A stretch of 64,000 nt of DNA from Candidatus Bathyarchaeota archaeon (GCA_963733095.1 CAVTBV010000009.1:203372-267371); one strand, 5' to 3'. Numbered from the stretch's first letter, positions 26,404 to 64,000 are shown. A program made the numbers and translations. The notes: generated by a model not told the origin, from the sequence alone.

Positions 26404-26421
26404 ACAAACCCCTCTTAAGAT

Positions 26422-26979: not shown

Positions 26980-27197
26980 GTTTAAGCAAAACGTATGAGG
27001 GTACGTTCGGGTATAATTCCGCTAAAGTTTACATTCTCTAAAGATTCTGGCGCCACCAAATTCTGTGACCTACTCAAAGCCTGATTCTACAAAGCTACAG
27101 ATTTCTTTTTCCGTTTTAGCAACTTTTGAGTTGTAGCTTGTTTTGCCTTGGAATAATGCTTCTTCAAGCTGGACGCAAAAAGGAAAGTTTTGGACTT

Positions 27198-27665
27198 CTA
27201 TGCGAAGCTAACAAATTTTTTCGGTTCATTACTCGTTGCAAAAGTCCAGAAGTGAGCTGTGCATTTAATGATTCTAAAGAGAATCAGCCCTGGATTTTCC
27301 GGTGTTAATCCTGCCTTCTTTAGGAAGGGCCTGGCGTCAAGAAGCTTCTTTTTCATTTCTATATCATCAATGAATTCAACCGTGCCGGCTACCCTCATTT
27401 GCTGCATGTCTTTGCTTTTACTGTTAAAGAAGCACACTTCAACCTTAGGTGTAGCTTTCAACTGCTTATAGACATCTTTTCCAGCGGCAGAGCTGTAATA
27501 TAGACCTGACTTGTCAGCGTACCAAAGTTGAAATCCTCTGACCCGCGGTTGTCCACTATCTACGGTTGCTAAGAAGCCTATTGGATTTTCATTTACAAAC
27601 TTGATATACTCTTCTAATGTAGATGGTTGACTCATGTTGTTTTTCACTGAAAGATACTTTGGCAA
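27198..27665 (-). CDS. Pyridoxamine 5'-phosphate oxidase-like FMN-binding protein
   Basis: FLATVDSGQPRVR, KQLKATPKVEVCF and QMRVAG motifs. Confidence 0.88.
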   Translation of the reverse strand: MPKYLSVKNNMSQPSTLEEYIKFVNENPIGFLATVDSGQPRVRGFQLWYADKSGLYYSSAAGKDVYKQLKATPKVEVCFFNSKSKDMQQMRVAGTVEFIDDIEMKKKLLDARPFLKKAGLTPENPGLILFRIIKCTAHFWTFATSNEPKKFVSFA

Positions 27666-27724
27666 CAGTATATTTATTGTTATTAAATTATGAAAGTTAA
27701 TCTCTCAAAAAAGATTATTCTTTC

Positions 27725-27786
27725 AAAATAGGGAAGTGCGGGAACATCTCCACCGGCTTGAGGGTTTGAATCCCATCCCTGCACCA
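27725..27786 (+). repeat. tRNA-T-arm att-like site (Leu-type)
   Basis: AAAATAGGGAAGTGCGGGAACATCTCCACCGGCTTGAGGGTTTGAATCCCATCCCTGCACCA. Confidence 0.88.
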
Positions 27787-28065
27787 TTTTCGAACACTAT
27801 CACATGACTTAGAAACCAAGCAGTCAATAATGACTGCCAGAACCCTGACGAACCCATTCAAAGGCTGGGTTCTTCCAAACGCCTAAATGCTGGATAGGGC
27901 TTAACCATCTATTCCAGAGATTTGGTGTACCCAACTCTATTTATTTCGTCAAGAGTCAGCTAACGTTGTACAAATCGATAAAGCAACAATCAAAACGGTA
28001 AACTTCAATGGACAATTAGTCCATACAAACTAAATTGCAACCCAAATTTTCTTCTTTATTCATTA

Positions 28066-29784: not shown

Positions 29785-29966
29785 GATAACCTTTGATTAA
29801 TTATTAAGCCATCTTTTAAGTTAGTGTTAAAAAATAATTAATTAGAGCTTGATTAAACGTTCAAGTTAAGTACAACTTCAGAGATGCCGCTTGCATACTC
29901 TTCTGTCCGCCTAGAACTTCCAGTAATCAATACCATTGTATGTTATCCACCTTTAGACATATGCGC

Positions 29967-30034
29967 AAAGAAAAGAGGGAGTTTGGCGAGTGATACCTCG
30001 GCGCCTTGAGGGATTCGAATCCCGCTATCCACTA
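29967..30034 (+). repeat. tRNA-T-arm att-like site (Ala-like TCCAC end)
   Basis: AAAAGAGGGAGTTTGGCGAGTGATACCTCGGCGCCTTGAGGGATTCGAATCCCGCTATCCACTA. Confidence 0.8.
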
Positions 30035-30237
30035 TCGAGGAACCTTAGCTGTCGACACTTTTCACTTCTTGCTCTGAAGACCAAAAACGTTCAATGGATA
30101 ATTCACGCTTAAAAGATGCAGCTAAAACATTTTTATTCAATAGTTTTTTAAGGCGACACAACAATAACTTCTCATTCACTACGGGTACTGCCTACGGTCG
30201 GAAGTTAACAACTTGCCCTATATAGGATGAGAAAACC

Positions 30238-31359
30238 ATGAAAAAACAATTGCTTTCAGCTATTCTTATCGCATTTTTCTTTGTTTCAGTTGCAGCCATT
30301 TCCCAAATATCCCCCTGCCAAACAGTGGCGCCGGGAACAACAGCAACTCCAACGCCAACAGAAGCACCAGCACAAGGAAGTGCCCCTGACTTTTTACTCA
30401 TAGTTGGAACCATAACTGTTGTGGTAGTAGCTATCGGAGGCACGTCTGCATTTTTGGTTGTTAAGAGGAGGCGGGTGAATGAAAAAAGCTTGAGGCGATT
30501 TTCATCCAGTGACTTCCAAGAATGGGTTATCAAAAAATTCAATGGTAAACCAAGTGATTCCTCTTCGGGCGTAAATGGTTTTACCCAGGGAGGTCAACCA
30601 CTTTTGGTTAAACAATCTGACCATGTCAGCTTGGCTGAGGTTGAAGACTTTGTCAAAACACTAGTGAAGGGAAAGGCGCAAAAGGGCACAATTGTAGCTT
30701 TCAACTTTGACAACGATACCATTGAAGGAAAAGTAACGGCTATGGATAACGGAATTGAGCTTCAAATGTTGCGCATAACTGAACTAGTGAATAAACGCTT
30801 CTCTCGCAGAATTGAAAGCCTTGCTCGTTCGCAGGTCACCTTCGATGCCCCAGCCACATACATACCAGCGGAAGCCCGTGGGGGGGAAACACAAAAACAA
30901 ACTTTTGAGAAAATACCAACAATGCTCCCTAAGGATGGTGTGGGCAAACCTAAGGTATTCGTATCTAATAGTAACACGAAGGTAGCTGACCAAGTAAAGA
31001 AAATGCTGGATTTTCTTCATTATGACTATGTCATAGGTGACAAAGAAGAAACGTCTGTCCCAATTCCTGAGAGCAAATTTGGTCTTATGCAAAGCTGTGA
31101 TTGCGCAATAATTAACATCGCTGCTGCTGAACAAGAGAGAAGGTACAGCGGACTTTACGTCCTTAATTCTAATATTATCTCAGAAATCAATGCAGCCTAT
31201 CTGAAATATAATACGCAAGTTATCTTGTTGTTGGAGAGAAAGATAGACCTCCCTACAAATCTTAAAGGGCTAAAAAGAATTGAATACGACAGCGATGATC
31301 TGTCTTTCAATGCAGCAATGGATCTGGAGAAAGCTTTGGCAGATTTCAAAGAAATATAA
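30238..31359 (+). CDS. Signal peptide/TM + Mrr-like domain + TIR-like nucleotide-binding domain protein
   Basis: DFQEWVI...LLVKQS...VEDF...GTIVAFNF (Mrr-like). KVFVSNS...CDCAII...NIISEI...LPTNLKGLKRIEY (TIR-like, PF10137-type). Confidence 0.7.
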   Translation: MKKQLLSAILIAFFFVSVAAISQISPCQTVAPGTTATPTPTEAPAQGSAPDFLLIVGTITVVVVAIGGTSAFLVVKRRRVNEKSLRRFSSSDFQEWVIKKFNGKPSDSSSGVNGFTQGGQPLLVKQSDHVSLAEVEDFVKTLVKGKAQKGTIVAFNFDNDTIEGKVTAMDNGIELQMLRITELVNKRFSRRIESLARSQVTFDAPATYIPAEARGGETQKQTFEKIPTMLPKDGVGKPKVFVSNSNTKVADQVKKMLDFLHYDYVIGDKEETSVPIPESKFGLMQSCDCAIINIAAAEQERRYSGLYVLNSNIISEINAAYLKYNTQVILLLERKIDLPTNLKGLKRIEYDSDDLSFNAAMDLEKALADFKEI

Positions 31360-50417: not shown

Positions 50418-51260
50418 TTGGTAGCCTTCGTAACTAAAGCAGACGGCACAAAACAGCCATTTGACAGAGAAAAGATAGTTCAAACTTGCCAAAGAATGGG
50501 CGCAAACCGCGACGTTGCCATTCAAGTAGCCCAAGAAGTAGAAAAAAATCTCTACTCCGACATAACCACAAAGAAGATCCTTCAAATAATCTTTACCCAG
50601 ATGAGCAAACACAAACCCGCTGTAAAACACCTCTTCGACCTCAAATACGGTATAAGCCTAATGGAGCCAAAACCCGAATTCGAAGCCTTTGTCCGAGTTG
50701 TCTTAGCTCACGGTGGCTTCATAGTTAAGCCCAACATGATTCTTAAGGGAATGTGCGGGGAACATGAAGTGGATGCTATAGCTACCAAAGAAGGCTTAAC
50801 TTATCTTGTGGAAGCAAAACATCACCTAAGCTACCATTCACTGACTGGACTTGATGAAACTCGCATAGCTCGAGCAATCATAGAAGACGTCACAGAAAGT
50901 TACACAAATGGCGAAACAAAAATCAAGATTGACCGCGCAATGATAGTTACAAACACCCGTTACTCAGACCATGCAGTAATGTATGGGGGTTGCCGCGGCA
51001 TTTTGCAGGTCGGATGGGCTTCTCCTAAAGGTTTCGGGTTAAAAGATCTTGTTGAGAAACACAGGTTGTATCCCTTGAGTTGCTTGCGTGGAGTTAGCAC
51101 AGAAACACGACTGCGCCTTGTTGAGGAGGGAATAGTACTCATAAAACAGCTACTCGAACAAGACAGTCACTACATTGAAAGAAAAATTGGGCTGCCCCAA
51201 CGAACCGTCTTGTCCATAATGGAAAAAGCCCGACACACAACAGAAACACTATGGCTTTAG
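50418..51260 (+). CDS. ATP-cone + PD-(D/E)xK (Mrr-like) nuclease domain protein
   Basis: VTKADGTKQPFDREKI; FEAFV...EHEVDAIA...VEAKHH; IVTNTRYS. Confidence 0.85.
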   Translation: MVAFVTKADGTKQPFDREKIVQTCQRMGANRDVAIQVAQEVEKNLYSDITTKKILQIIFTQMSKHKPAVKHLFDLKYGISLMEPKPEFEAFVRVVLAHGGFIVKPNMILKGMCGEHEVDAIATKEGLTYLVEAKHHLSYHSLTGLDETRIARAIIEDVTESYTNGETKIKIDRAMIVTNTRYSDHAVMYGGCRGILQVGWASPKGFGLKDLVEKHRLYPLSCLRGVSTETRLRLVEEGIVLIKQLLEQDSHYIERKIGLPQRTVLSIMEKARHTTETLWL

Positions 51261-51283
51261 TCAAAACTAACCGAATTCGAGTC

Positions 51284-51336
51284 AGTCAAACTTTCTTGAC
51301 TAACCTCCTTTTCAGCTTAGTCAAAGTTTCTTGACG
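51284..51336. promoter_or_regulatory. Pair of palindromic operator-like sites AGTCAA-N6-TTGAC
   Basis: 51284-51301 and 51319-51336, upstream of the CDS at 51381. Confidence 0.5.
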
Positions 51337-51380
51337 AAAAACGTCTTAAGGAGAAAGCATCAAGGCTCTATCGATGTGAA

Positions 51381-52055
51381 ATGAAAGCATTTACCGCCCT
51401 GATTTTGGTAGGCCTGATACTTTCTGTCTTAACTACATCGTCGCTGACTTATGCTAATGCTGGGTATTCTGTGGGTGTTAAAGAGGGCGATTGGATGGAA
51501 TACGACGTCAACGTCAAGGACACTCCCCCGCCAATACATAATGTTACATGGATGAGACTTGAAGTCCTTCAGGTTGAAGGAGCAGCGTTCCCAGCGAACC
51601 TAACTGTAAGGTTTCAAAACGGGACATTCTACAGTTCCATCTGGCAGTTTAACTTCACAGAAGGCAACCTTGAAGGCTGGATAATAATACCCTCAAACCT
51701 CAGTCCAGGAGACACATTCTATGATAACTATTCCAAAACGGACAAAAACATAGCAATACAAAGTCAAACCCAAAAAACGGTGTTAGCGGCAAGCCGAATA
51801 GTAACTTACGGAAGTGATTCCTACAGAACCAAGGAATGGGACAAAACAACGGGCGTCATTGTGCATTCTTCAGAGATTCTGAAGAACTGGAGTGTTAACG
51901 TCGATATGATTGCCACTAACCTGTGGGGTCCTCAGACTCTGGGACTAAGTAAAACGGCATTCTACACTATTGTTGGGGTAGGTGTCGGAATAGCAGTGTC
52001 GATAGGGTCTTCAGCAATTTTTGTTGTAAAAAGAAAGAGGCGGAAACTTGTATGA
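51381..52055 (+). CDS. Exported protein with C-terminal TM anchor
   Basis: Signal peptide, VGVKEGDWMEY, NLSPGD, WDKTTG, TM followed by KRKRR. Confidence 0.8.
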   Translation: MKAFTALILVGLILSVLTTSSLTYANAGYSVGVKEGDWMEYDVNVKDTPPPIHNVTWMRLEVLQVEGAAFPANLTVRFQNGTFYSSIWQFNFTEGNLEGWIIIPSNLSPGDTFYDNYSKTDKNIAIQSQTQKTVLAASRIVTYGSDSYRTKEWDKTTGVIVHSSEILKNWSVNVDMIATNLWGPQTLGLSKTAFYTIVGVGVGIAVSIGSSAIFVVKRKRRKLV

Positions 52056-52465
52056 GTGTAGCAGAAATTAACCTGATCGTGCAAACCTTTTGGACAACTT
52101 TGATTTTGGTAAGTATGTGGTTTAGAAACAAAGGCAACTATCTCATACATGGTATACTAATGGCGATAGTAGTCGTTGCAACGTTGGTTAGTTTTTCTTT
52201 TGTGCTGCTCATGACTCCTCCCAGCGGTAGTTCCATGCAAGTATATTTCGGTTCGCCTCTAAAAATGGCGGAATTCGTTTCGCATGCCATTCTTTCGATT
52301 CCAGCAATATTCTTTGGAGTTTGGCTTGTAGCACTTTGGCGTCCCAACTCAATAACATTTCCAGCAAAGAGCAAAAGGATAGCCCAAATTACCGCAACCC
52401 TGTGGGTTCTATCATATGTAGCGGGCGTTCTGGGTTTTCTAGCAGACTACGTTCTATTTAGATAA
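52052..52465 (+). CDS. Four-TM membrane protein (DUF420-like)
   Basis: HGILM and HAIL histidines in TM helices. Confidence 0.7.
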   Translation: MSVAEINLIVQTFWTTLILVSMWFRNKGNYLIHGILMAIVVVATLVSFSFVLLMTPPSGSSMQVYFGSPLKMAEFVSHAILSIPAIFFGVWLVALWRPNSITFPAKSKRIAQITATLWVLSYVAGVLGFLADYVLFR

Positions 52466-52477
52466 GCAAAGTCTGGA

Positions 52478-52528
52478 GAGCGATTACATCGAACTCTGTT
52501 GAGCCAATTTAAGTGACTTTGCAAATTC
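52478..52528 (-). repeat. Degenerate att-like site (non-tRNA right arm type)
   Basis: GAGCGATTACATCGAACTCT resembles GAGCAGTCGTTACATCGAACCCT at 62098. Confidence 0.5.
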
Positions 52529-52658
52529 GATAATGTCTATGCAGTTTTCTTTTTTGCATAGAAATTTAGTCAAACGTTAAATAACAAAACTGAGCTGACT
52601 TGGAGGAGATCTGAAATTGTAGCTTGAGTGCTGTGAGGCATTCATATCATGCGGCGAT

Positions 52659-52994
52659 TTAAGGATCTATCAGTTGCAGTTCAGATATTCTTTTCTCTAC
52701 CGTTTCGGCCAACTGTTGACTTAACTGTTCATCAGGCGTTGTCTTGTCTATCTTTTCTATTCTTCGGGCGAGCTCATCATCGCCGATTGCGCCTCTTAGC
52801 CACTTTTGGAAGTCTCCGCGTTCAAAGTGGAACCTGATTGATTGACTATCCATGCGTTCTAGGTCTTTTAAGAAAGTGCAAAGAGAAGTGGCTGTTTCAC
52901 CTGAATAATGTCCGTCTGGCATGAAGAAGTGGAAGCCTTTCTCGTAAGGAACTGGGCTGAGTATTTTCTGTACGGTTTCGGCGCTCATTTTCAA
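52659..52994 (-). CDS. DUF5752-like protein
   Basis: KGFHF...ATSL...SIRFHFERGDFQKW...IGDDELA pattern. Confidence 0.75.
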   Translation of the reverse strand: MKMSAETVQKILSPVPYEKGFHFFMPDGHYSGETATSLCTFLKDLERMDSQSIRFHFERGDFQKWLRGAIGDDELARRIEKIDKTTPDEQLSQQLAETVEKRISELQLIDP

Positions 52995-53053
52995 GATGGC
53001 AACATCCTTGATGTATATTTGGATGAGATGTTAAAACGGTTTTGGCGTTGTTT

Positions 53054-53154
53054 TTCCAAAATTTGGGCTCATGTCGGGAAAGTGGTCTTTCGCAATTAAT
53101 TTATCGTCAGAACATATAAAATAGCAATCTATGCGTCCGATTCTTGGAAGTCTT
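53054..53154 (+). repeat. Degenerate copy D of the AGGCCT-bounded repeat
   Basis: TTCCAAAATTTGGGCTCATG...TTATCGTCAGAACATATAAAA. Confidence 0.55.
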
Positions 53155-53530
53155 AGAGTTTTTTCCGCGCTAAAACAAAGACATGTATGTTCATTAAAGC
53201 GAAACCGAACATCCAAAATTCAATCGCATAGAGCATAGAATGGAAATAGGCAGGGACACATCCTGAGCTAAGAAATATCAGAGCAAGAATGCCTAAGATT
53301 TTTTCGTTGATACGCAAGTTGCTTCAGTATTCTTCTGCTGTTTCTTCGAAAATAAGGCTTATGAATTGAGAATATTGATACTAAATAGACTAGTTGCATT
53401 GATTTGTGTAGAGCTTCTGCTTTAATGCATTAAGAAGCGCAAAGTCTTCAAAGTTTGTCAGTTCTATCGGACTTTGTTACGTGTTAGTTCGATTGCAAAA
53501 CGACGTAGAATTAGTGAAAAAGATGTTGGA

Positions 53531-53592
53531 GTGGACTGGGGGTATTTGAACTCCTCGTAAAGTGGAGATATGACCCGCGATCCCCCTTTTTT
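53531..53592 (-). repeat. tRNA-T-arm att-like site (Ala-type)
   Basis: Plus strand GTGGACTGGGGGTATTTGAACTCCTCGTAAAGTGGAGATATGACCCGCGATCCCCCTTTTTT. Confidence 0.88.
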
Positions 53593-53657
53593 CTTGTTAC
53601 GCCATATTTTTAGGCTAATTTGTTTCATTATCCAGTTTTTGTGCATAACCGGTTTAC

Positions 53658-55088
53658 TTAATCTGTTGGCTTCTTATTGAGCAAATACTTATGGATAGCC
53701 TGCGCGGCCCTCTTTCCTGAACCCATAGCGTTGATGACTGTGGCTTCCCCTGTCATGATATCTCCACCCGTGAAAACACCGGGTAGTTTGGTTTCTCCAG
53801 TTTCTGGGTCGGCGACAATAGTGCCTTGTTTTGTTGTTTGGAGACCTTTGGTGACAGTCTGAATTACTGGATTGGGAGTTCGTCCAATGGCCACGATGAC
53901 TGTATCTGCTTTAGTGATATTTTCTGAGCCTTTGATTGGGACTGGTCTTCGCCTGCCTGAAGCATCTGGTTCTCCGAGTTCCATATTTACCAGTTCAATA
54001 GCGGCTACCCTGCCTTGCTCGTCGCCTATAAATCTGGTTGGAGTGGAAAGGAACTTGAAGTTAATGCCTTCTTCTTCGGCGTTAAGTAACTCTTCTTGCC
54101 TGGCAGGTATCTCTTCTTTTGATCTTCGATAGATTATGTTCACTTCATCTGCACCGCTTCTTATGGCACAGCGCGCTGCGTCCATCGCTACGTTTCCCCC
54201 GCCGATGACTGCCACTTTTTTTCCTACTTTAATGGGTGTATCATAAAGTGGAAATTGGTATGCTTTCATGAGGTTTACTCGTATTAGAAACTCGTTAGCT
54301 GAGTAGATGCCTGCCAAGTTTTCGCCAGGAATATTTAGAAAGAGTGGTAGCCCCGCACCGGATCCAATGAAGACTGCTTCGAATCCTTTTTTGAATAGTT
54401 CTTCAATCGTAAATGTTCTCCCCGCCAGGATGTCCGTGTGAAGTTCAACGCCTAATTTTTTAATGTAATCAACTTCTGCCTGGACAATTCTTTTCGGCAA
54501 CCTGAACTCAGGGATGCCGTAGATTAGAACACCGCCAGCATTGTGAAGTGCCTCGAAAACTACCACTTTGTGACCCAGTTTTGCTAGTTCAGCTGCCACT
54601 GTCAAGCCAGCTGGTCCTGAACCTATGACTGCAACTTTTCCTTCTAATGGTTTTGGTAAGGCAGGCATTTCCACGCCTCTTTCCAATTCGAAGTCAGCGA
54701 CGAACCTTTCAAGCCTACCGATCGAAACAGCTTGGTCTTTTTTTCTCAATATACAGAATTTTTGACATTGCTCTTCTTGGGGACAGACCCTACCACATAT
54801 GGCTGGAAGAGTATTTTTCTCTTTAATCTTTTGGCTGCCTTCGTTAAACTTTTTTTCTTTAATGAGCTTGATAAAGGCTGGAATGTCTACGCCTACAGGA
54901 CAGCCTTTTACGCATTGCGGTTTTGGACAACTAAGGCATCTATTTGCTTCCCGCGATGCTTCTGCTTCTGAATATCCAATTGCGACTTCGTCGAAGCTCT
55001 GTATTCGGGTTTTTGGAGGTTGTTTGCGCATTGGAACAGCGTTTTTGTTGGGTTGAGCTGGTGTTTTGTCTTTCAAGTTTTCTTGCAT
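53658..55088 (-). CDS. NfnB/SudA (NADPH-dependent glutamate synthase beta-like) large subunit
   Basis: RCLSC...CVKGCP, CGRVCPQEEQC, GSGPAGL, YGIPEFRLPK and GGGNVAMD motifs. Confidence 0.93.
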   Translation of the reverse strand: MQENLKDKTPAQPNKNAVPMRKQPPKTRIQSFDEVAIGYSEAEASREANRCLSCPKPQCVKGCPVGVDIPAFIKLIKEKKFNEGSQKIKEKNTLPAICGRVCPQEEQCQKFCILRKKDQAVSIGRLERFVADFELERGVEMPALPKPLEGKVAVIGSGPAGLTVAAELAKLGHKVVVFEALHNAGGVLIYGIPEFRLPKRIVQAEVDYIKKLGVELHTDILAGRTFTIEELFKKGFEAVFIGSGAGLPLFLNIPGENLAGIYSANEFLIRVNLMKAYQFPLYDTPIKVGKKVAVIGGGNVAMDAARCAIRSGADEVNIIYRRSKEEIPARQEELLNAEEEGINFKFLSTPTRFIGDEQGRVAAIELVNMELGEPDASGRRRPVPIKGSENITKADTVIVAIGRTPNPVIQTVTKGLQTTKQGTIVADPETGETKLPGVFTGGDIMTGEATVINAMGSGKRAAQAIHKYLLNKKPTD

Positions 55089-56032
55089 TCACAAGTAGCT
55101 CCTTCACCTTTTTCACGGAAGGCTAAAGCTGAATGCTCCTCCTCGGGATATTCCCTTAATCGACCCATTAGTTCTTTGAAGTCCGTTTTGTGTGCATCAA
55201 ACTCGGGTCCGTCAATGCAGGCAAACTTGGTTTTACCACCAACGGTTACTCTACATGAGCCGCACATGCCCATCCCATCAACCATTATTGGGTTTAAGCT
55301 GACTATTGTTTTAATGCCGTAAGGTCGTGTGACCTCTGCTGTTGCCCTCATCATAGGCACTGGACCTATAGCGTATACTATGCCAAACGAGTAGTTCCTC
55401 TCAATAAGTGATCTTAGAACATCAGTAACAAACCCTTTCTGTCCTTTTGACCCATCATCTGTTGAGATGTAGAATTTATCAGAAACTGCTTTCATTTCAT
55501 CCTCAAGAATTAGAAGTTCTTTGTTCCTTGCTCCGAGAATAGAAACAACTTTGTTTCCTGCAGCTTTAAGGGCCTTTGCAATAGGGTGAGCCGCAGCAGT
55601 GCCTACTCCTCCGCAAACGACCGCGACCACACCATAATTCTGTATGCAGCTGGGATTCCCTAATGGACCAGCAACGTTCAAGATTTCATCTCCGACGTTT
55701 AGAGCAGCTAGCTTTTTGGTTGATACCCCCAGGTGTTGGAAAATCAAAGTAATCGTTCCAGAACTGCCTTGTGCACTTTTCCATTGGAAGAGTGTAAGAG
55801 GGATTCTTTCTCCTTCTTCATCTATCCTAAGTATTACAAACTGGCCTGCTTGGGCTTTCTCAGCTATTTCTGGCGCAACTAACGTAATTTCTGTAACTTG
55901 GGGATTAAGGGTGCGTTTGCGTATTATGGGATGTCCTTTCCTGTCCAGTGGAAATGAATTCCTTGATTCAATATTTTGAATCGTAGGCGTGTCTTCAACC
56001 TTCTATTCTTTTATCTTTTTGTTTTTGAGCAT
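55073..56032 (-). CDS. NfnA/SudB FAD/2Fe-2S subunit; start ambiguous (in-frame TAG at 56003-56005)
   Basis: AQAGQFVILRIDEEGERIPLT lies in frame upstream of the called ORF; GPLG, TDDGS, MVDGMGMCGSCRV and CIDGPEFD motifs. Confidence 0.85.
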
Positions 56033-56093
56033 TTATGTTTCGCTCTAAGAAAGGATGTGGGGAAATAATTTTTTGTGTAATCTTTAATTTGAA

Positions 56094-56321
56094 TCAGGTG
56101 TGGACTGCTACTTCGGTTCGAATTACAGCATTGATTTGGCTAACAGCCTCGCGGATGCGCCTTAAATCATCAAGGTCTTTTGCTTCTGCATAGAGTATTA
56201 CGTCATATGATCCCATTACTGAATGGGTAATTTTGACGCCTTCAATTTTTTGGGTTTCTTGTACAGTGAGAAAAGCCTGTCCTTTCTTGGTTCGAATAAG
56301 CATATAAAAAGGAACGACCAC
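56094..56321 (-). CDS. Lrp/AsnC ligand-binding domain protein
   Basis: HSVMGSYDVILYAEA pattern. Confidence 0.85.
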   Translation of the reverse strand: MVVPFYMLIRTKKGQAFLTVQETQKIEGVKITHSVMGSYDVILYAEAKDLDDLRRIREAVSQINAVIRTEVAVHT

Positions 56322-56576
56322 TGATTTTCTCCTCAGAAATAATTATAAATAAACTAAAATGTAAAGTTTGTTGTTTGCACCCCGCAAGTAGCTGAGGAAA
56401 AAGCGAGAAATCTCAGTGTTGTGGAACTAATAGAATTCCCATTTTCTCTATTCTTATCTACATAAACCACCTAAGACTTTCTGAATTTAGAAGTATATTA
56501 TAATCATAGTAAAAAGCACCATTTCTACTGCGACTTCACCAGCAAAACCCCTTCTTTTTCTAATTAAAAAAACTCT

Positions 56577-56663
56577 GAACAAGAGGCTTGCCACCTTATA
56601 GAATCCGGTTTTGAGTTTGTTTGTGATTTTGGTGATAACCGGCTCTTTAGAAAGCGGAAATAA
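56577..56663 (+). pseudogene. Putative integrase C-terminal stub
   Basis: EQEACHLIESGFEFVCDFGDNRLFRKRK*, ending about 45 bp before an att-like site. Confidence 0.65.
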
Positions 56664-56707
56664 AGGTGTTTTCATAAGGACCGGGGTGTATCAAAAAGTA
56701 TGTTTAA

Positions 56708-56770
56708 GTGGACTGGGAGGATTTGAATCCCTCGTAAAGTGGAGATGTCACTAGCAGAATTCCTTTATTT
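56708..56770 (-). repeat. tRNA-T-arm att-like site (Ala-type)
   Basis: GTGGACTGGGAGGATTTGAATCCCTCGTAAAGTGGAGATGTCACTAGCAGAATTCCTTT; closely similar to 53531. Confidence 0.88.
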
Positions 56771-56775
56771 TCTCT

Positions 56776-56945
56776 TTGTGTGGGTGTGGGACCTAAAAAC
56801 TGCACACTACACTGGAAGCTTTGGGAATGGTTCCTTTTTCAGTTTGGGTCGTTTTCCTATTGTTGTTTGAGTGTGGGAAGAGGGTTTAGCCCACACATTC
56901 AACATGGATGCTATGTTGGAGTGTGTGGGTGTGAGTGTGGTTGTA
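56776..56945 (+). repeat. GTGTG/CACAC-rich non-coding element, copy 2
   Basis: TTGTGTGGGTGTGGGACCTAAA...ACACTACACTG...AGTGTGGGAAGAG...CCCACACA.TCAACAT...GTGTGG..GTGAGTGT. Confidence 0.8.
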
Positions 56946-57206
56946 TGTTGGCGACTCTATTCCTGTATCCTGTGCCTGTTTTTCTTTCTGACCTAAACTA
57001 CGGTTTTGTAAGTTCATTTAGCGATCAAACAATCGGGGGATCAAACTGTGACTAATCGCAGAAAGATGAACTGTCCACTTGGAGGCGAAGCATAAAGCGA
57101 TAGTCGAAAGTAATGCAAATGTCGAGCAGATTGCCTCTAAACTTCAGAAGACGCCTTTGAGTTGTGATAGTGAAATGTCAACGCTTAGGCTTGTAGTAAT
57201 AGCGAT

Positions 57207-57272
57207 GGGTCGGCGGGGCTGGGATTCGACCCCTCTACCAATGGAGATATCACCCGCATTCTCACTTTTTTT
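57207..57272 (-). repeat. tRNA-T-arm att-like site (CCCCGCCG end)
   Basis: CGGCGGGGCTGGGATTCGACCCCTCTACCAATGGAGATATCACCCGCATTCTCACTTTTTT. Confidence 0.85.
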
Positions 57273-57457
57273 CAAGGTTTTTTTCCGCTGTCTTTTCCGC
57301 TAATCGTTTACGGAAATTACTTAGCTGGCAAGAGGCTTCTTTTTTTCGCAAAAAGCTTGCATTATTTTTTAGAATGTTGACTATTCTGCATTTGTTTGTT
57401 TTATTTGTCACATGTTTTTGTTGGTTTATAGCAAGTTTTAAGTTAACTTCGTTATAG

Positions 57458-60169
57458 ATGTGGTCGGCAGAAAGAAAATGGAGAAAAAAACAAATGAAAA
57501 TTTCTGGAAAAAAAAATGCGACAATAGTGATCGTAATATTATTGGCTTTTTCAATCACAGCGTCAATGACATTGATATCAAGTGTTAACGCACATTACCC
57601 CCCGATGAATATTCCAACGTTCTCTTTCATTAGCGTTTCACCAGATCCAATAGGCATAGGACAAACAGCTCGCGTTAACTTCTGGCTCGGTCAACCTCCA
57701 CCAACAGCAAATGGACAATACGGTGATAGATGGACAAATATGACTGTGAAAGTTACGCATCCTGGTGGAACAACTGAGACTTTAGGACCTTTTACTTCCG
57801 ATGATACAGGAGGAGCCCACACAAGTTATACGCCTATTGTACTGGGAAATTATACTTTCCAGTTCATCTTTGGTGGACAAACATTGGCAGGCAACAATCT
57901 TGCTCCTGGAGCTCCCTCGTCTGGACCTGGCTCTAACATAAATATCGGCGATTATTTCCAACCCAGCTCAAGCAACGTATTTACACTAACAGTACAACAG
58001 GAAGCAATCCAATATCCAACGGAAGCTCCACTTCCAACAGGCTACTGGACACGCCCAATTTATGCTGAAAACAACAACTGGTACTCAATTGCCGGGAACT
58101 GGCTTGGTTTTGGTCAGACATCATTTGCTAACACTGGAATGTACAGTGTTGACGTAAACTATAATCCGTATACAACCGCGCCCAACACTGCTCATATTTT
58201 ATGGACGAAACCTGAAGCTTTCGGTGGTACAATCGGTGGAGAATTCGGCGGCAGCGAGCAAGGCAACTTCTTTTCAACTTCGCAGTACGAGCCAAAGTTT
58301 GCGCCAATAATCATGAATGGTATTCTCTACTATACCCAGTACCCAGGAAGTGCTGCTAATCCAGCAGGATGGGTAGCCGCAGACTTACACACAGGACAAA
58401 CATTATGGACAAAGAACACAACTGAACTTTTAAGATGCGGTCAAATACTCCAAATGACTACACCCAATCAATACGGAGCCCTCGCATACCTCTGGAGCCA
58501 GCCGTTGGGTCCTAGGGTTGTAAACGAAAACTTCGGCGCAAGCGTCGGCGGATCTTTAGAGATGTGGGATGCAATGACTGGAAACTACATATTAAAGATA
58601 ACTGGCGTTCCTATTGCAGTAAATGGCCCTGGTACTGGCATAGTACTTTCAAAAGATGATCGTGGCGATTTAATAGGTTATTATGTGGATTCGAGCAACC
58701 CGTTCGCACCAAAGCTGAACATGTGGAACTCGACACGATGCATTAACCTAGCCGTTCCGAACTCTTACGGTGGACCAAATGTTGCAGATAATTGGTATTG
58801 GAGACCTCCTCAAAACGCAGAAATAAACTTCACCTTAGGAATACAATGGTCGGCTCCAATCGCTACAAGTGTTTCAGGCTCGCCAATCGTAGATTTCGCT
58901 AATGGCCTCTACGGTCTCGGAATTACTTATGTCAGCAGCGGAGTAGTGTATATGTCAGAATACACTATGGGCGGAGGACTATTCTACCAACCCGGATGGA
59001 CTATTGAAGCAGGCTACAGCGCAACAGACGGCTCACAACTGTGGATAACTAACCGAACTCAAATACCCTACACTCTCATATCTGCGGGTGCCGGTACCTA
59101 TTTCGCCGGCGACGGATATTACGTACAATTCACCCAGAATGCATTGTCCATCTCATGCTTCAGCCTAACAACAGGAAACAAAGTATGGGGACCAACTACA
59201 CTTCCAAACGCTAGTCCTTTTGATTCTCTTGGAGGCAACTCAGTCATCGCCAACGGCACAATTTACCTATGGGCTTACGGAGGAGACGTTTACGCATACA
59301 ACCTTGCCGATGGAACTCTCAAATGGCATTACAGCACACCAAGCGGCGGCTTAGAGTCTCCCTATGGTGTCGAGCCATTATGGACTTTCACGGTAGGTAC
59401 CGTTGCTGACGGCAAACTCTTCGTTCCTGAAGGCCATATGTACAGTCCACCACTTTTCCACCAAGCACAGCAGCTCGCCCTCAATATTACTGACGGCAGT
59501 GTGGTTTGGAGTATTGATGCTTTCGACGTTACTAGCGGTCCAGCTATTGTAGATGGCATTATGACAACGTTAAACGCTTACGACAACCAAATATATGCCT
59601 GGGGTAAAGGACCAACCGTTACCACTGTTTCAGCGCCAAACATTGGGGTTACAACTGCCACACCAATTACGATAAGCGGAACTGTTATCGACATCTCTGC
59701 AGGTACAAAACAACAAGCGCAAGCAGCAAACTTCCCCAAGGGTGTTCCTGCGGTTTCTGACGCAAGCCAAAGTGGCTGGATGGAATATGTTTATATGCAG
59801 CAACCTTGCCCAGCAAACGTAACCGGCGTTCCAGTTTCTCTCGAAGTTCTTGATTCAAACGGCAACTATAGACAAATCGGCTCTACATCAAGTGATGGCA
59901 GCGGCGCATTCCGCTTCACGTGGACACCTGATATAATAGGCGATTACACGATCGTTGCGAACTTTGCAGGTTCTGAATCGTACTATCCTTCCTCTGCAGA
60001 AGCATTCTTTACTGCCAGCGAACCAGCGTCGACATCAGCACCAACCGTTGCACCTGTAACAGACATAGCAACAATGTCAGGCCTAACTATTGGAATCGCT
60101 GCAGCAACAATTGCCATAATCATCGCTATAGCAATAGTCGGGATTCTTCTACTCAAAAAAAAGCCATAA
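57458..60169 (+). CDS. PQQ-binding-like beta-propeller surface protein
   Basis: Paralog of 2698-5259; likely start ATG at 57493. Confidence 0.85.
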   Translation: MWSAERKWRKKQMKISGKKNATIVIVILLAFSITASMTLISSVNAHYPPMNIPTFSFISVSPDPIGIGQTARVNFWLGQPPPTANGQYGDRWTNMTVKVTHPGGTTETLGPFTSDDTGGAHTSYTPIVLGNYTFQFIFGGQTLAGNNLAPGAPSSGPGSNINIGDYFQPSSSNVFTLTVQQEAIQYPTEAPLPTGYWTRPIYAENNNWYSIAGNWLGFGQTSFANTGMYSVDVNYNPYTTAPNTAHILWTKPEAFGGTIGGEFGGSEQGNFFSTSQYEPKFAPIIMNGILYYTQYPGSAANPAGWVAADLHTGQTLWTKNTTELLRCGQILQMTTPNQYGALAYLWSQPLGPRVVNENFGASVGGSLEMWDAMTGNYILKITGVPIAVNGPGTGIVLSKDDRGDLIGYYVDSSNPFAPKLNMWNSTRCINLAVPNSYGGPNVADNWYWRPPQNAEINFTLGIQWSAPIATSVSGSPIVDFANGLYGLGITYVSSGVVYMSEYTMGGGLFYQPGWTIEAGYSATDGSQLWITNRTQIPYTLISAGAGTYFAGDGYYVQFTQNALSISCFSLTTGNKVWGPTTLPNASPFDSLGGNSVIANGTIYLWAYGGDVYAYNLADGTLKWHYSTPSGGLESPYGVEPLWTFTVGTVADGKLFVPEGHMYSPPLFHQAQQLALNITDGSVVWSIDAFDVTSGPAIVDGIMTTLNAYDNQIYAWGKGPTVTTVSAPNIGVTTATPITISGTVIDISAGTKQQAQAANFPKGVPAVSDASQSGWMEYVYMQQPCPANVTGVPVSLEVLDSNGNYRQIGSTSSDGSGAFRFTWTPDIIGDYTIVANFAGSESYYPSSAEAFFTASEPASTSAPTVAPVTDIATMSGLTIGIAAATIAIIIAIAIVGILLLKKKP

Positions 60170-60391
60170 AACCAAAAAAATATTTTCCCCTTTTTTAGTT
60201 TTTAAAAATAACAATGCTTGAGAAAAGAAGGGGCTGAGCCTGCTGTGACAACTATTCATGAAATAGCTGTAGATTAAAAGAAGATTTTTGCATTTTCCCT
60301 CTTTCTCCTATTTCGGTTCAGGAGCCTCAGCAAACCCAACTTCATTCTTGCAAAATAGTTGGCTTGTTTTCATTTACCTCCCAGTCCTAAA

Positions 60392-60454
60392 TTGGACCAG
60401 GCTTGATTTGAACCCTTGTCATATCCGTGACTTCACTCGCATATTCCTTTTTTT
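60392..60454 (-). repeat. tRNA-T-arm att-like site (GGTCCA end)
   Basis: TTGGACCAGGCTTGATTTGAACCCTTGTCATATCCGTGACTTCACTCGCATATTCCTTTTTTT. Confidence 0.75.
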
Positions 60455-60545
60455 AATCAAGTGTAATTGGTTCGAAACACATAATCTAAAAAAGCAGAAA
60501 GCAATAAACTTATAATCCAAGTCAAACCAATAAAAGCCGAAGTAA

Positions 60546-60767
60546 GTGGATGAAATGGACAGAAAATTAAAAACTATACCCGAACCGAAAAAGGGAACGC
60601 GCACCGTTTTTGTTTCTAAAACGTTGCCAGTAATAAAAAGCAAGGGCGGTAATACTACTTATCTATGTGGTAATTGTGGAGCAAAGCTAGGCGAGACTAT
60701 AATCGAAGGAAAATTCAAGAATGTTGTGTTAAAGTGTCCAACTTGTAACCTCTACAACGACATATAG
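60546..60767 (+). CDS. Small zinc-ribbon protein
   Basis: YLCGNCG...KCPTC..YN pattern. Confidence 0.7.
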   Translation: MDEMDRKLKTIPEPKKGTRTVFVSKTLPVIKSKGGNTTYLCGNCGAKLGETIIEGKFKNVVLKCPTCNLYNDI

Positions 60768-61066
60768 TTTAGGTGACGATTTTCACAAAGAGAAGAATTC
60801 TGCTCAAGTGACAGAGACTTAACTGACCCGCCGAAAAGACTTTGTAACCGCTGCGCCTTCATGGTTCCAACTTCTCTGCTGGAACAGGGAACATAGGCAA
60901 TTCTACTTTTCCATCTTTGTTCCCACTAGTTAATTCCAATTGTTTAACTGCTCACCCATTTCCTCTCTTAAATGCTGAGTTTTAATTTTATCCATCGTTA
61001 TCTAACACGATAGGGAAAAAACCAGCTATTCAGGGCCAATAAAGAGCTAGCTATTTTACTTAAATC

Positions 61067-61128
61067 GGTGCAGGGGCGGGATTCGAACCCTCTGTAAATG
61101 GAGAAATCACCCGCACAACCCCTTTTTC
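61067..61128 (-). repeat. tRNA-T-arm att-like site (Leu-type)
   Basis: GGTGCAGGGGCGGGATTCGAACCCTCTGTAAATGGAGAAATCACCCGCACAACCCCTTTTTC. Confidence 0.9.
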
Positions 61129-61164
61129 TTTAAACTAGACGAAAAATAGCAGGGAAATGAAAAC

Positions 61165-61296
61165 ATGTTGGAAGAAAAAACAGTAAAATGCCCCGTATGC
61201 GGCAGTCAGAAGTCATACAAGGACGGCATAAGGTACACTCATTCAAAGGAAATTCAGTGTTACCAATGCCGTGAATGCAGCCACAGGTTCTCATAA
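61165..61296 (+). CDS. 43 aa Zn-ribbon ORF (InsA-like / putative integrase N-terminal stub)
   Basis: MLEEKTVKCPVCGSQKSYKDGIRYTHSKEIQCYQCRECSHRFS*. Confidence 0.65.
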   Translation: MLEEKTVKCPVCGSQKSYKDGIRYTHSKEIQCYQCRECSHRFS

Positions 61297-61360
61297 CGGT
61301 GGGGAGCGATTTGGACTATGATTGGGTGAAGATGTCGCCTCTAACCCATTTTTTCATTAT

Positions 61361-61963
61361 TTAATGAAGAGGCTTTCGGCGTCTTCTATAAAGCATTAAA
61401 CCCACACTTATTCCGAAAACTACTGAGATGATAGAAACAACAGCTATGACGGAAAAAGACGAAGAAGGCTGTGGTTTTTCTATTAGCTTTTCGGTTGAAA
61501 ATGTAACTGTTGCATTACTATGGGAATTATCATGGGTATTAGCATAAACGGTCAATGTATGATTACCGAAAGGAATCTGTTGAAACGTTGCGCTAATTGA
61601 GGCGTTTAATGAGTTTACATACTGCGTCTGATGACCAAAAAGCTGGTGAATACCGTCTTGCCAATCCGCCTGGTAATAAACACTATCAATTGTCCAAAAA
61701 TACGAAGCCACATCTACTGCCAATGTAAAGTTGCTTGCTTGAATTACGGTTTGGTTTTCTGGCGTTATGATTTCAACAATTGGTGAAACATGTGCTTCAC
61801 GGATTGCAGGCGGTTGAATAACAGGTGAACTTGTATCCCATTGAGTAAACGAAACAATGGGTTCTATTTGGCTTTTGACTGTTGAAAACGAAGCCGTGCT
61901 TGAAAGGCAAAGAATACAAAGAATTGTTACGGATAGAAGCTTAGCTTTCTTCATGTTTATCAT
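61361..61963 (-). CDS. Exported Ig-like protein with C-terminal TM anchor
   Basis: Signal peptide, PIVEIITPENQT...GNHTLTVYAN, TM followed by RRRRK. Confidence 0.8.
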   Translation of the reverse strand: MINMKKAKLLSVTILCILCLSSTASFSTVKSQIEPIVSFTQWDTSSPVIQPPAIREAHVSPIVEIITPENQTVIQASNFTLAVDVASYFWTIDSVYYQADWQDGIHQLFGHQTQYVNSLNASISATFQQIPFGNHTLTVYANTHDNSHSNATVTFSTEKLIEKPQPSSSFSVIAVVSIISVVFGISVGLMLYRRRRKPLH

Positions 61964-62085
61964 AGAACTTTAAGGTAGAGTTGCTAATTACTCTCCCCAA
62001 AGAACAGCATGTTCCTCTAAAAGAACAGCAAAAGTTTCTTGTCTATCCTGGAATGATGCATTCTGCAGGATATAGAAGCTACACC

Positions 62086-62164
62086 CCCTGGCGTTTTGAG
62101 CAGTCGTTACATCGAACCCTCCACTCGATGGAGATGTCACCCGCGTTCCCCTCTTTTCTTTTTT
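62086..62164 (-). repeat. att-like site, conserved left arm with non-tRNA right arm
   Basis: CCCTGGCGTTTTGAGCAGTCGTTACATCGAACCCTCCACTCGATGGAGATGTCACCCGCGTTCCCCTCTTTT. Confidence 0.85.
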
Positions 62165-62245
62165 GTTGAAAATGACCGAGGTGAGGTAGCTTGTTTGGAG
62201 CAGATGTCGCCAACATAAACTCTTTGCCATTCTAGATGCTGATAC

Positions 62246-63730
62246 TCATAGTGAACCAGCGAGTTTCGTTCCTGTGTGCAATACTTCACTCACCAGAATC
62301 TCAAAGTCTTCACGTCGACTTCGATGATTTGTGTTAGCCACTCTAAGAACATACTTCCCATTTATGACGGTTCCAGTTAAAACGGCGATGCCGCGTTCCT
62401 GTAAATCAATAGCAATTTCCTTGTTAACTTCATCGAGTAACATATCAGTCAAATCAGATGAGACAAAACGGAAGCAAACTACGTTTAGCGAAATCGGCGC
62501 CGAAAGTTCCAGTCCCGGAGAAGCTTTGATAAGTTCGCCCAAATAGAAAGCCTGATCGATGTTCTGTTGAATTATCCTTGCATATTTCTTTGTGCCGTGC
62601 TCCTTAATAGAAATCCATGCCTTAAGCGCACGAAATCCCCGAGAAAGCTCATAACTGTAATCGCTAAACCATGGCAAATCGCCGCCGGCAACACCGTGTT
62701 CTTCTTTTCCGTGAGCAAGGTATTTAGGAGTTAAACAGAAAGCCTTTCGATGCTGCTTTTCTTCCCTCACTAAAATGCATCCAATTTCGTAAGGCATATA
62801 CATCCACTTATGCAAGTCTAATGCCAACGAGTCAGCCAACTCCATTCCCGCAACAGTTTTTTCCGCTTTGGGCGACAGGCGAGCCCAGGCGCCAAATGCG
62901 CCGTCAACATGGAACCAAAGTTTTTCTCTTCGGCATATATTAGCCAGAGCCTTAAGATCGTCCACGCTTCCAGTGTTCGTTGTGCCGGCAGCTCCAATAA
63001 TGCAGAATGGAGAAAAACCGCTTTCGCGGTCTCTTGTGATAGCTGCTTCAAGTTTTGCGATATCAATTTGGAACTGATTATTAACTGGCAAAAATCGCAG
63101 TGCCTCACTTCCCAGTCCAAGCAGCTCCACAGCTTTCTGAATTGAACTGTGGGCTTCTTCGCTAGCGTAGAGCACCATATTCTTAGGTGCCATTTGAAGT
63201 CCCTTCCTGCGGAGGTCAAAACCTGCTTTCGTGTTGCGGGCAACTGTTAGTCCGATTAGGTTAGAGGCTGAGCAACCGCTGGTTAATACTCCGCTCGCTG
63301 AGGCTGGAAACTGGAGCATTTCCTTAATCCAGTCGAGAACTTGCTTTTCAACGTGTACAGCAATGTGGTCTCCCCCTCCATTGTTTGTGTTCATTGTAGC
63401 CGCCAAAAGTTCAGAATAAGCCCCCATGATGGTTCCAGTTCCAAGTATCCAACCCCAGAAGCGCGGGTGGATGTTTCCCATCGGGTACGGAAGCACTTTT
63501 TCAGTAAATTCCTTGTAGACCTCTTCGGGTCGTTCAGGATTTACAGGCACAGGTGCTGTGAACTGAGCTTTTACTTGTTCAGGAATATTTTGCCAGACAG
63601 GACGCTCTCGAACTGATTTCAAGTAATCTACCACGTCATCAAGCATCTTGTGACCAAGCTTTCGCATTGATTCCCAATTATCAGGGTCCAGCGTTTCTTC
63701 AGACACTGCATTATTGATTTCTGTTTTCAC
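62246..63730 (-). CDS. PLP-dependent group II (aromatic-L-amino-acid-like) decarboxylase
   Basis: HPRFWG, AHSSIQKA, AGTTNTG, HVDGAFG, DLHKW and SRGFRALK motifs. Confidence 0.92.
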   Translation of the reverse strand: MKTEINNAVSEETLDPDNWESMRKLGHKMLDDVVDYLKSVRERPVWQNIPEQVKAQFTAPVPVNPERPEEVYKEFTEKVLPYPMGNIHPRFWGWILGTGTIMGAYSELLAATMNTNNGGGDHIAVHVEKQVLDWIKEMLQFPASASGVLTSGCSASNLIGLTVARNTKAGFDLRRKGLQMAPKNMVLYASEEAHSSIQKAVELLGLGSEALRFLPVNNQFQIDIAKLEAAITRDRESGFSPFCIIGAAGTTNTGSVDDLKALANICRREKLWFHVDGAFGAWARLSPKAEKTVAGMELADSLALDLHKWMYMPYEIGCILVREEKQHRKAFCLTPKYLAHGKEEHGVAGGDLPWFSDYSYELSRGFRALKAWISIKEHGTKKYARIIQQNIDQAFYLGELIKASPGLELSAPISLNVVCFRFVSSDLTDMLLDEVNKEIAIDLQERGIAVLTGTVINGKYVLRVANTNHRSRREDFEILVSEVLHTGTKLAGSL

Positions 63731-63866
63731 TCTGAATGCCTCTCATGAATCCTATCGAATACTTGATTTATTTATTGCTATAAAATTGCGAATTGATGCT
63801 GATAAACTGAAGTGACTGTTCTAAGACAGAAATTTCTGACAAACCTTATATTATTTTGATGTTGAA

Positions 63867-63930
63867 GTGGACTGGGGGGATTTGAACCCAGGACAGCAAT
63901 GAGGATTCACTCGCAAAATTCCTCTTTTTT
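63867..63930 (-). repeat. tRNA-T-arm att-like site (Ala-type)
   Basis: GTGGACTGGGGGGATTTGAACCCAGGACAGCAATGAGGATTCACTCGCAAAATTCCTCTTTTTT. Confidence 0.88.
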
Positions 63931-63957
63931 GTGTGTACTTGGCATAGGTGAACAAAC

Positions 63958-64000
63958 ATGGAACGCAAAATCATAAATTGCCCGCATTGCGGCAAAACTA
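63958..64000 (+). CDS. Start of a Zn-ribbon protein (possibly an integrase), runs off the window
   Basis: AGGTGA RBS, MERKIINCPHCGKT; same position relative to the att-like site as the ORF at 61165. Confidence 0.55.
   Translation, partial: MERKIINCPHCGKT

Follow-up and report, generated by a model that had tools for sequence, protein, structure and literature searches.

How can a single co-oriented array of repeats carry the 3′ ends of different tRNAs behind one constant arm? The question is raised by the right-hand part of a 64,000-nucleotide (nt) stretch of Candidatus Bathyarchaeota archaeon DNA, hereafter the window, which spans positions 203372-267371 of contig C9 in assembly G000 (16 contigs, 2.84 Mb); the contig ends at base 64000, and window genes including those for a eukaryote-type topoisomerase IB, aIF2, formylmethanofuran transferase, and RuBisCO give it archaeal-type content. 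Our answer, to which we assign a probability of about 0.65, is that the array is an integration island seeded at a tRNA-Ala(tgc) gene: a stack of scars left by small elements with zinc-ribbon integrases, in which foreign elements have landed or with which they have recombined. In kind, the system is tandem tRNA-site integration with integrase decay (“gene capture”), which is already known; the common arm, the mixed tails, and an element specialized on the arm set it apart.

The repeat is about 70 nt long. Read on the minus strand, it consists of an A-tract, an inverted repeat centered on TGCGGGTGA, a linker, GGGTTCRAATCC, and a variable tail; the inverted repeat reads GGGGnTnTGCGGGTGAyATCTCC, with a conserved center, and is followed by 7-10 variable bases before GGGTTCRAATCC. 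A profile search finds seven copies in the right-hand array, every one on the minus strand:

53520-53595, minus strand: outermost copy, Ala(tgc) tail (nhmmer E = 3.9e-16)
56700-56773, minus strand: copy with Ala(tgc) tail at an element/element junction, followed by an integrase C-terminal remnant (nhmmer E = 1.4e-14)
57199-57273, minus strand: copy with tail CCCAGCCCCGCCGA (nhmmer E = 1.2e-14)
60383-60457, minus strand: copy with tail CAAGCCTGGTCCA (nhmmer E = 6e-12)
61066-61132, minus strand: copy with Leu-like tail CCCGCCCCTGCACC (nhmmer E = 3.4e-17)
62091-62162, minus strand: copy with the arm up to GGGTTCGA, then a non-tRNA tail (nhmmer E = 1.9e-11)
63857-63931, minus strand: copy with constant arm, T-arm, tRNA-Ala(tgc) 3′ end, and flank TTCAACATC (nhmmer E = 3e-15)

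An earlier note, made from the sequence alone, had listed six right arms of this array, and all six lie where it placed them when read on the plus strand as reverse complements: GTGGACTGGG at 53531, 56708, and 63867; GGTGCAGGGG at 61067; CGGCGGGG at 57211; and TGGACCAGG at 60393. Its list was incomplete, lacking the seventh copy at 62091-62162. It had also described a constant arm, TGCGRGTGA, and here the counts bear it out: the motif is exact in 4/7 copies (the remaining three have CGCGGGTCA, TGCTAGTGA, and CGCGGGTGA) and occurs five times in the window against 0.53 expected, a number reached in 0/100 shuffles. Across the genome, the profile search (E < 0.01) finds 41 copies, with a best E of 3e-17, in co-oriented clusters. 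A second array within the window points at the first from 23 kb away:

26415-30040, plus strand: mirror-image left array of three copies (26415, 27718, 29965), downstream of tRNA-Leu(tag) at 21126-21213

What are the tails? Each was scored against the 3′ ends of the genome's tRNAs, with the maximum score among shuffles as background. The tails of 53520-53595, 56700-56773, and 63857-63931 match tRNA-Ala(tgc), with scores of 18, 18, and 21 against shuffle maxima of 10-12 (12 for the last), and all three also carry the TTCAACATC-like 9-nt flank of the tRNA-Ala(tgc) gene. The identity block common to these tails and the gene with its flank, TTCAAATCC..CCAGTCCAC plus TTCAACATC, reaches the tRNA 3′ end and slightly past it, as in other tRNA-integrase elements. 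The tail of 61066-61132 is Leu-like: it scores 20 with Leu(tag) against a shuffle maximum of 10, matches Leu at 13/15 positions (one gap) and Ala at 8/14 (manual count), is one C shorter than the tRNA, and has near-identical counterparts on family copies in other genomes. The tail of 60383-60457 scores best with Ala(ggc) (17 against 10) but is ambiguous, perhaps an Ala tail altered by drift; that of 57199-57273 (best score 15 against 12) has no tRNA assignment and was not found as a tRNA end, with a search pattern allowing ≤2 mismatches, in 40 other genomes of the genus. The tail of 62091-62162 is not derived from a tRNA at all (score 8 against 11). It starts directly past GGGTTCGA and recurs at C7:85205 (also given as 85278), C13:28709 (28781), and C7:78069. 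Thus, three tails are Ala(tgc), one is Leu-like, one is non-tRNA, and two lack an assignment; the mixing of identities behind one arm that the earlier note had claimed holds for three kinds of tail at least: Ala, Leu-like, and non-tRNA. Other copies in the genome join this arm to tails of the Arg(cct), Cys, Pro(ggg), and Leu types. The non-tRNA tail family (window part 62091-62120) is ~50 nt long, has its own small hairpin, ends in ...GTAGCTTCTATATCC, and is joined to the arm inside the T-loop; one of its copies lies 300 nt behind tRNA-Leu(cag).

Where do arm and tail meet? The T-stem forms 2.6 of 5 pairs in 35 copies, as opposed to 4.8 of 5 in 31 tRNAs: its 5′ strand is near-constant and its 3′ strand is mismatched. 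The non-tRNA tails diverge directly past GGGTTCRA. Broken T-stems, with a constant 5′ and a varying 3′ strand, and non-tRNA tails that start in the T-loop together place the junction within GGGTTCRAATCCC. Judged from these sequences, crossover would occur in or next to the T-loop, a known class of tRNA integration site, and the earlier note's placement of the junction at the T-loop is backed by the T-stem mismatches and the divergence past GGGTTCRA. Its stronger claim, that recombination needs only the T-loop, fares worse: integrase clades are tied to particular tRNAs, and the ~45-nt arm that adjoins the T-loop shows order-wide conservation, so the T-loop alone is unlikely to suffice.

Which enzymes accompany the scars? 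The genome has 20 tyrosine-recombinase family matches, and one group of integrases has an N-terminal zinc ribbon (CPxCGS...IQRYxCRxCGxRFS, from alignment) and adjoins tRNA genes. These proteins match PF00589 only; PF16795 matches three other places in the genome only. The member beside tRNA-Ala (C16:178418-178984; PF00589 E = 1.8e-23) ends 57 nt past the tRNA-Ala(tgc) gene on the opposite strand and stays open for 188 codons until the contig end cuts the gene. As a single-protein query, it finds 421 relatives in the genome collection, almost all in Bathyarchaeia/Bathyarchaeota genomes. Among the 80 loci kept for counting, a tRNA lies no more than 200 nt from the integrase stop codon in 61, and in 57 of these the two are convergent; the median gap is 42 nt. 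The partner tRNA tracks the integrase clade: the 13 closest loci (at least 72% identity) have tRNA-Ala(tgc) in 12 cases and an arm copy instead in the thirteenth, and the partners of clades farther off are Arg(cct), Cys, Pro(ggg), and other tRNAs. Remnants of such genes lie in both arrays, and two zinc-ribbon open reading frames (ORFs) accompany them in the right-hand one:

56571-56660, plus strand: last ~30 amino acids (aa) of an Ala-clade integrase (tblastn, 67% over 30 aa)
60546-60767, plus strand: 73-aa zinc-ribbon ORF, divergent from copy 60383-60457 (weak LITAF-like zinc-ribbon match)
61165-61296, plus strand: 43-aa zinc-ribbon integrase N-terminus (tblastn, 47% over 38 aa, residues 43-80 of the full integrase; blastx)
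63960-64000, plus strand: start of a zinc-ribbon ORF (CPxCG) cut short where the contig stops (the motif agrees with the integrase alignment; too short to search)
27025-27195, minus strand: Leu-clade integrase C-terminal remnant of the left array (nearest to Leu-partnering integrases), following the Leu-like tail of copy 26415

The remnants are antisense; they precede the A-tract by 58-118 nt or lie 74 nt past the tail. With these remnants, the C16 gene, and the 61 loci of relatives, a tyrosine recombinase gene stands next to the target tRNA or junction. Remnant 56571-56660 is convergent with the Ala tail of copy 56700-56773, 74 nt away, and 5/6 of its top matches are integrases that partner tRNA-Ala(tgc); remnant 61165-61296 is divergent from copy 61066-61132. 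The most telling order is found on contig C14, where a Leu-like tRNA, itself accompanied by an integrase, anchors the array: behind a Cys tail stands a Cys-clade remnant (6/6 top matches partner tRNA-Cys; 78-90% identity over 60 aa), and after this Cys unit comes a Leu-type junction with a Leu-clade remnant. Since the clade of the remnants matches the tRNA type of the tails beside them, foreign tails are not products of drift; by this comparison, they are the ends of elements with other tRNA specificities.

The ORF at 63960 is divergent from copy 63857-63931 and starts 28 nt past its A-tract. It was considered as the N-terminus of the C16 integrase, and this was rejected: the closest full-length relative of that integrase (425 aa, 99% identical over the C-terminal 170 aa) begins differently, so the ORF probably belongs to another integrase or a remnant.

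If the array was seeded at a tRNA gene, where is that gene? The left array has its anchor within the window, tRNA-Leu(tag) at 21126-21213 (plus strand) followed by plus-strand copies with Leu-like tails. On the right, the contig ends at base 64000, so the sequence past it is not directly readable. The sole tRNA-Ala(tgc) that ARAGORN finds in the genome (C16:178287-178361) lies at another contig end, beside the truncated integrase. Relatives supply the connection: in G001, G003, and G016, minus-strand copies come after the ortholog of window 44-51 kb, and past them stands a tRNA-Ala(tgc), likewise on the minus strand. In G001, tRNA-Thr and tRNA-Leu(tag) precede a left array, after which come the ortholog of the 32-51 kb core of the window, a single Ala-tailed copy on the minus strand, and the minus-strand tRNA-Ala(tgc); beyond this tRNA lie ~14 kb orthologous to C16:176560 down to 162774. 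G003, in one contig, and G016 share this neighborhood. Given this continuity across tRNA-Ala, the end of C9 joins the reversed end of C16, with a gap of unknown size. The minus-strand anchor tRNA, probably Ala, that the earlier note had predicted beyond 64000 is therefore tRNA-Ala(tgc) by synteny; of the intact integrase it proposed to look for there, the gene exists beside the C16 tRNA-Ala, and the contig end that cuts it makes its intactness unreadable. Co-oriented partial copies of a tRNA 3′ end downstream of the intact tRNA are thus found in the window for the left array and by synteny for the right.

How could such an array be built? In the scheme we propose, small elements, each an integrase gene with zero to three cargo genes, would insert into the 3′ part of tRNA genes by crossover in or next to the T-loop. 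Each would bring a replacement tRNA 3′ end ~40-60 nt behind the integrase stop codon, with the integrase convergent with the tRNA; its far end would carry the conserved arm (A-tract plus the inverted repeat centered on TGCGGGTGA), and insertion would fuse this arm to the displaced tRNA tail as an attR scar. Repeated insertion would push older elements outward and stack the scars in one orientation; integrase genes would decay and cargo would remain. The arm is common to sister integrase clades aimed at Ala, Leu, Arg, Cys, and Pro tRNAs, and because every scar offers the same arm and T-loop, an element of other specificity could use a resident scar. Occasionally, a foreign-aimed element would land in such a scar or recombine with it, leaving a foreign tail and a foreign integrase in the stack. 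The unit order observed in the tRNA direction is tail, antisense integrase, optional cargo, and arm; two units in series yield arm-tail-integrase, the junction that a second element should create on entering an occupied tRNA. The claim of the earlier note that modules moved by inserting into existing junctions may describe this route but is unproven: one Cys insertion into a Leu-type junction would leave the C14 order, and translocation or homologous exchange between copies would leave it too, which makes the two routes indistinguishable.

The family is widespread. The arm, as sequence model R1, is present in 38/41 genomes of the order; copy numbers run from 0 to 39 per genome, and G000 has the highest. 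Mixing recurs in G077, whose four copies have, by eye, one Ala, one Cys-like, one Arg/Pro-like, and one unclear tail; this genome has an intact integrase beside tRNA-Ala, with the nearest arm copy ~14 kb away and short scars after it. Eight pattern matches in viral contigs comprise three full copies and five chance matches inside other sequence. Among 11 public sequencing runs that matched (best share 0.46), the four compared with the array gave short low-depth contigs and, in the parts these cover, no joint that adds or removes a module; one weak joint, 51254 to 53522, has depth 2 and a shorter side of 21 letters and is unreliable.

Several observations count against the stacked-scar reading. 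Two tails in the array resist assignment and the non-tRNA family lacks an explanation. In relatives, the full copies in tRNA-Ala arrays are all Ala-type (1/1 in G001, 3/3 in G003, 2/2 in G016), so mixing is not the rule. Integrases are scarce near the scars, with only five remnants within 1.6 kb of the 41 copies, and an intact element that unites integrase, constant arm, and cognate tail was not seen anywhere in the genome. A full arm copy with a Leu-like tail on a 13-kb IMG/VR viral contig (L142:3047-4034, minus strand) has, ~45 nt past its tail, a 300-aa integrase without zinc ribbon that is co-oriented with the arm, not divergent from it. The arm lies 28-60 nt from integrase starts, and its role as an arm-type binding site for the zinc-ribbon domain, as an integrase promoter region, or as both is suggested by this position only. 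Finally, a covariation test finds no compensatory change in the inverted repeat: cognate halves form 4.92 pairs and swapped halves 4.83, and 272/1000 swaps reach the observed value. This is compatible with a DNA site and no proof of one.

How do other explanations fare? One that we consider possible, if doubtful, goes further than stacked scars: the array would be a tRNA-seeded capture platform, integron-like but no integron, with arm plus T-loop as a universal docking site for any family member, whatever its tRNA, and with a second element specialized on the arm. An element that uses the arm does exist. It is 3.5-4 kb long, encodes a XerA-like integrase (458 and 424 aa, without zinc ribbon) as well as an AbiV-type gene, and is found at C9:114625-118666, at C13:17705-14155, and in G067 (L043 around 1425). 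In these three independent places, it sits exactly in the TGCGGGTG center of a repeat copy: the left repeat half is followed by TACACTTTACTATTA in all three, and the right half stands on the other side at C9 and C13, where it was checked. The inferred element ends, TACACTT... and ...AAGTGT, form an inverted pair around a TCGGGTG spacer. The element occurs in 4/61 genomes of the genus, which makes it a guest that targets the arm rather than the enzyme that builds the arrays.

Could the mixing instead have come later? All scars might derive from tRNA-specific integration at their own tRNAs, to be shuffled afterward by homologous or integrase-driven exchange between dispersed ~60-nt arms, through translocation or inversion. 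We regard this as unlikely, although the substrate is plentiful: 41 similar copies in both orientations include the two arrays that face each other across 23 kb; G003 and G000 have many orphan copies with no tRNA within ~8 kb, and one Ala-type copy with Ala flank in G003 lies ~1.5 Mb from tRNA-Ala. The tRNA specificity of the integrase clades also suits it, as does archaeal integrase exchange between short identical segments, quoted in the available part of PMC8371274. On the other hand, G000 and G001 agree in how the core block is ordered and oriented with respect to the two anchors, so there has been no net inversion here, and C14 has exactly what a single insertion yields, namely a foreign tail, a foreign integrase, and the resident tail.

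An integron-like cassette platform, in which a dedicated recombinase would exchange modules at the TGCGGGTGA center and tRNA tails would be mere passengers, is very improbable. Its appeal lies in the small modules (0.4-3.2 kb, 0-3 genes) with co-oriented border sites and in the XerA-like element, whose three insertions indicate that the TGCGGGTG center is usable as a recombination target. But the XerA-like integrase is present in 4/61 genomes of the genus and the repeat in 38/41 of the order; the integron-integrase model reaches 47.9 bits against a cut-off of 265; cargo points both ways; and the loop variants GCGAGTGA and GCGGGTGA co-vary, by eye, with variants on both sides, a linkage that gives no sign of exchange at the center.

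Drift of all tails from tRNA-Ala, the alternative that the earlier note itself had named, can be discounted almost entirely. The tail of 60383-60457 could have arisen that way, and tRNA-Ala arrays of relatives do include drifted Ala tails, but the idea is contradicted by the Leu count at 61066-61132 and the recurrence of that tail in other genomes, by the separate conserved non-tRNA family at 62091-62162, and by remnant integrases that track the tail type.

That the copies are genes for tRNA-like RNAs or split-tRNA 3′ halves is hardly credible: for all their T-arm-like segment, acceptor-like 3′ end, and upstream A/T-rich tract, no copy scores as a tRNA or any Rfam family (a window scan at E up to 1 gives two tRNAs and one chance match, nothing else), and neither an intact T-arm 3′ half with a matching 5′ half, as in split or permuted tRNAs, nor any occurrence of the loop motif outside repeat copies, nor complementary 5′ halves were found in the window motif search, so that, together with broken T-stems and no hairpin covariation, the results point to hybrid junctions at a DNA site and not to RNA genes.

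With stacked scars as the preferred reading, how does the system compare with known ones? Integration at tRNA sites and gene capture in Sulfolobus were reportedly treated by Williams in 2002 and by She and colleagues in 2001. As in tandem arrays built by tyrosine integrases at tRNA sites, there are co-oriented partial tRNA 3′ copies, a tRNA-adjacent integrase, outward decay, and crossover at a tRNA stem-loop; unlike in those arrays, a ~45-nt arm is common across tRNA targets and conserved across the order, one array has the tails of several tRNAs, the modules are very small, and a second element uses the arm. Tandem integration at tRNA genes, three tRNA target regions, and integrase gene loss appear in the available portions of PMC8371274 and PMC6563490; the former, a review, makes no mention there of zinc in connection with an integrase N-terminus. 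Going by their description in the accessible text, the tycheposons of Prochlorococcus (bioRxiv 10.1101/2020.12.28.424599) are similar: they are tRNA-seeded islands formed by successive insertions, with scattered partial tRNAs, fragmented integrases, and adaptive cargo left behind. They are bacterial, however, their partial copies are of the island's own tRNA, and that text describes no common arm or foreign tails. SSV-type integrases (PMC7253208, in part) are archaeal, target tRNAs, and leave integrase fragments, but their attP lies inside the integrase ORF and the gene is split; here, the site is outside the ORF, between stop and start, and the zinc-ribbon integrases have no PF16795 match. 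The pTN3 integrase of Thermococcales (PMC5495485, in part; quoted in the available part of PMC8371274) mediates exchange between tRNA-linked sites. Recombination of dispersed similar segments of this kind, which reshuffles chromosomes, would explain the foreign tails; that enzyme is of a different family, targets the tRNA 5′ half, and, as far as these excerpts go, needs identical segments of at least 104 bp.

Integrons share with the present system arrays of small, promoter-poor accessory modules and co-oriented recombination sites. They are reportedly found in Archaea too. Here, unlike in integrons, there is no IntI-type integrase, cargo lies in both orientations, and the anchors are tRNAs: the integrases tested reach 47.9 and 18.4 bits with TIGR02249 (cut-off 265) and 29.1 with NF011946 (cut-off 435), and, judged without an attC model, the sites are T-arm plus tail rather than an attC fold, with both-strand cargo and modules of zero or three genes. 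In the literature searched on Bathyarchaeia, we found virus surveys and no account of small integrase elements or a common arm.

What do the modules carry? Those of the right-hand array, 0.4-3.2 kb with 0-3 accessory genes and co-oriented sites at their borders, contain the following features:

53658-56321, minus strand: operon for an AsnC-type regulator, an NAD-binding/Fe-S subunit, and a GltD/NfnB-like oxidoreductase (Pfam)
56780-56960, plus strand: GT-rich dispersed repeat of ~180 nt, directly adjoining the A-tract of copy 56700-56773
57458-60169, plus strand: gene for a 903-aa PQQ-propeller surface protein (PF13360; dozens of paralogous matches in the genome)
61361-61963, minus strand: ORF for a 200-aa signal-peptide/Ig-like membrane protein (weak Big_7 match)
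62246-63730, minus strand: pyridoxal-dependent decarboxylase gene (PF00282 E = 3.6e-63)

Array cargo is accessory (oxidoreductases, methyltransferases, a decarboxylase, flavodoxin, glyoxalase, PQQ-propeller surface proteins, an AbiV-type protein) and lies on both strands. A blastn search of the genome found no second copy of any module, apart from PQQ paralogs and the ~180-nt repeat. The latter has nine other genome copies with 72-78% identity, one in the left array (window 26727-26886), and also adjoins tRNA-Gln on contig C11. The PQQ-propeller proteins form a very large paralogous family of 850-920 aa with a C-terminal membrane anchor; members are encoded at window 2698-5259 and 57458-60169, L001:1733-4486, L014:5083-7644, and dozens of further places, several inside arrays.

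Other observations concern related scars and neighbors. Three further minus-strand copies, one with an exact tRNA-Leu tail, stand at the start of contig C3 (374-3606), where the contig end cuts the array. Scars that share the layout of A-tract, GGGG, small inverted repeat, linker, T-arm, and tail but have other inverted repeats (such as GGCGATATCGCC or AAGTAT..ATACTT) lie at C1:89093, C6:55395, C14:23508, and C14:28045, and G016 has same-layout scars with different inverted repeats at L040:2786 and L039:17773; in this genome, ~110-nt mini-modules separate successive sites. In the window, a low-GC stretch (0.34-0.39; 14772-20958) of ORFs without Pfam match adjoins tRNA-Thr(ggt) at 20882-20958, includes an SSV-type integrase fragment (PF16795) at 14772-15407, and is probably a separate integrated element. 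Directly past the last copy of the left array, 30238-31359 codes for 373 aa that include a weak CAP12/Pycsar-type TIR domain (E = 3e-5, just below the cut-off).

What does this mean for the biology of these organisms? Bathyarchaeia, though abundant, have not been cultured, and little has been written about their mobile elements. The arm, in the form of model R1, is a sequence handle with which integration islands and their accessory cargo can be mapped across the order, and the arrays reveal how genes for surface proteins, redox enzymes, and defense are gathered next to tRNA genes. If differently aimed elements do dock in each other's scars, the islands would be a shared marketplace rather than private sites; this would change the reading of gene flow in these archaea and would offer, ready-made in nature, integrases that combine a single arm site with differing core specificities.

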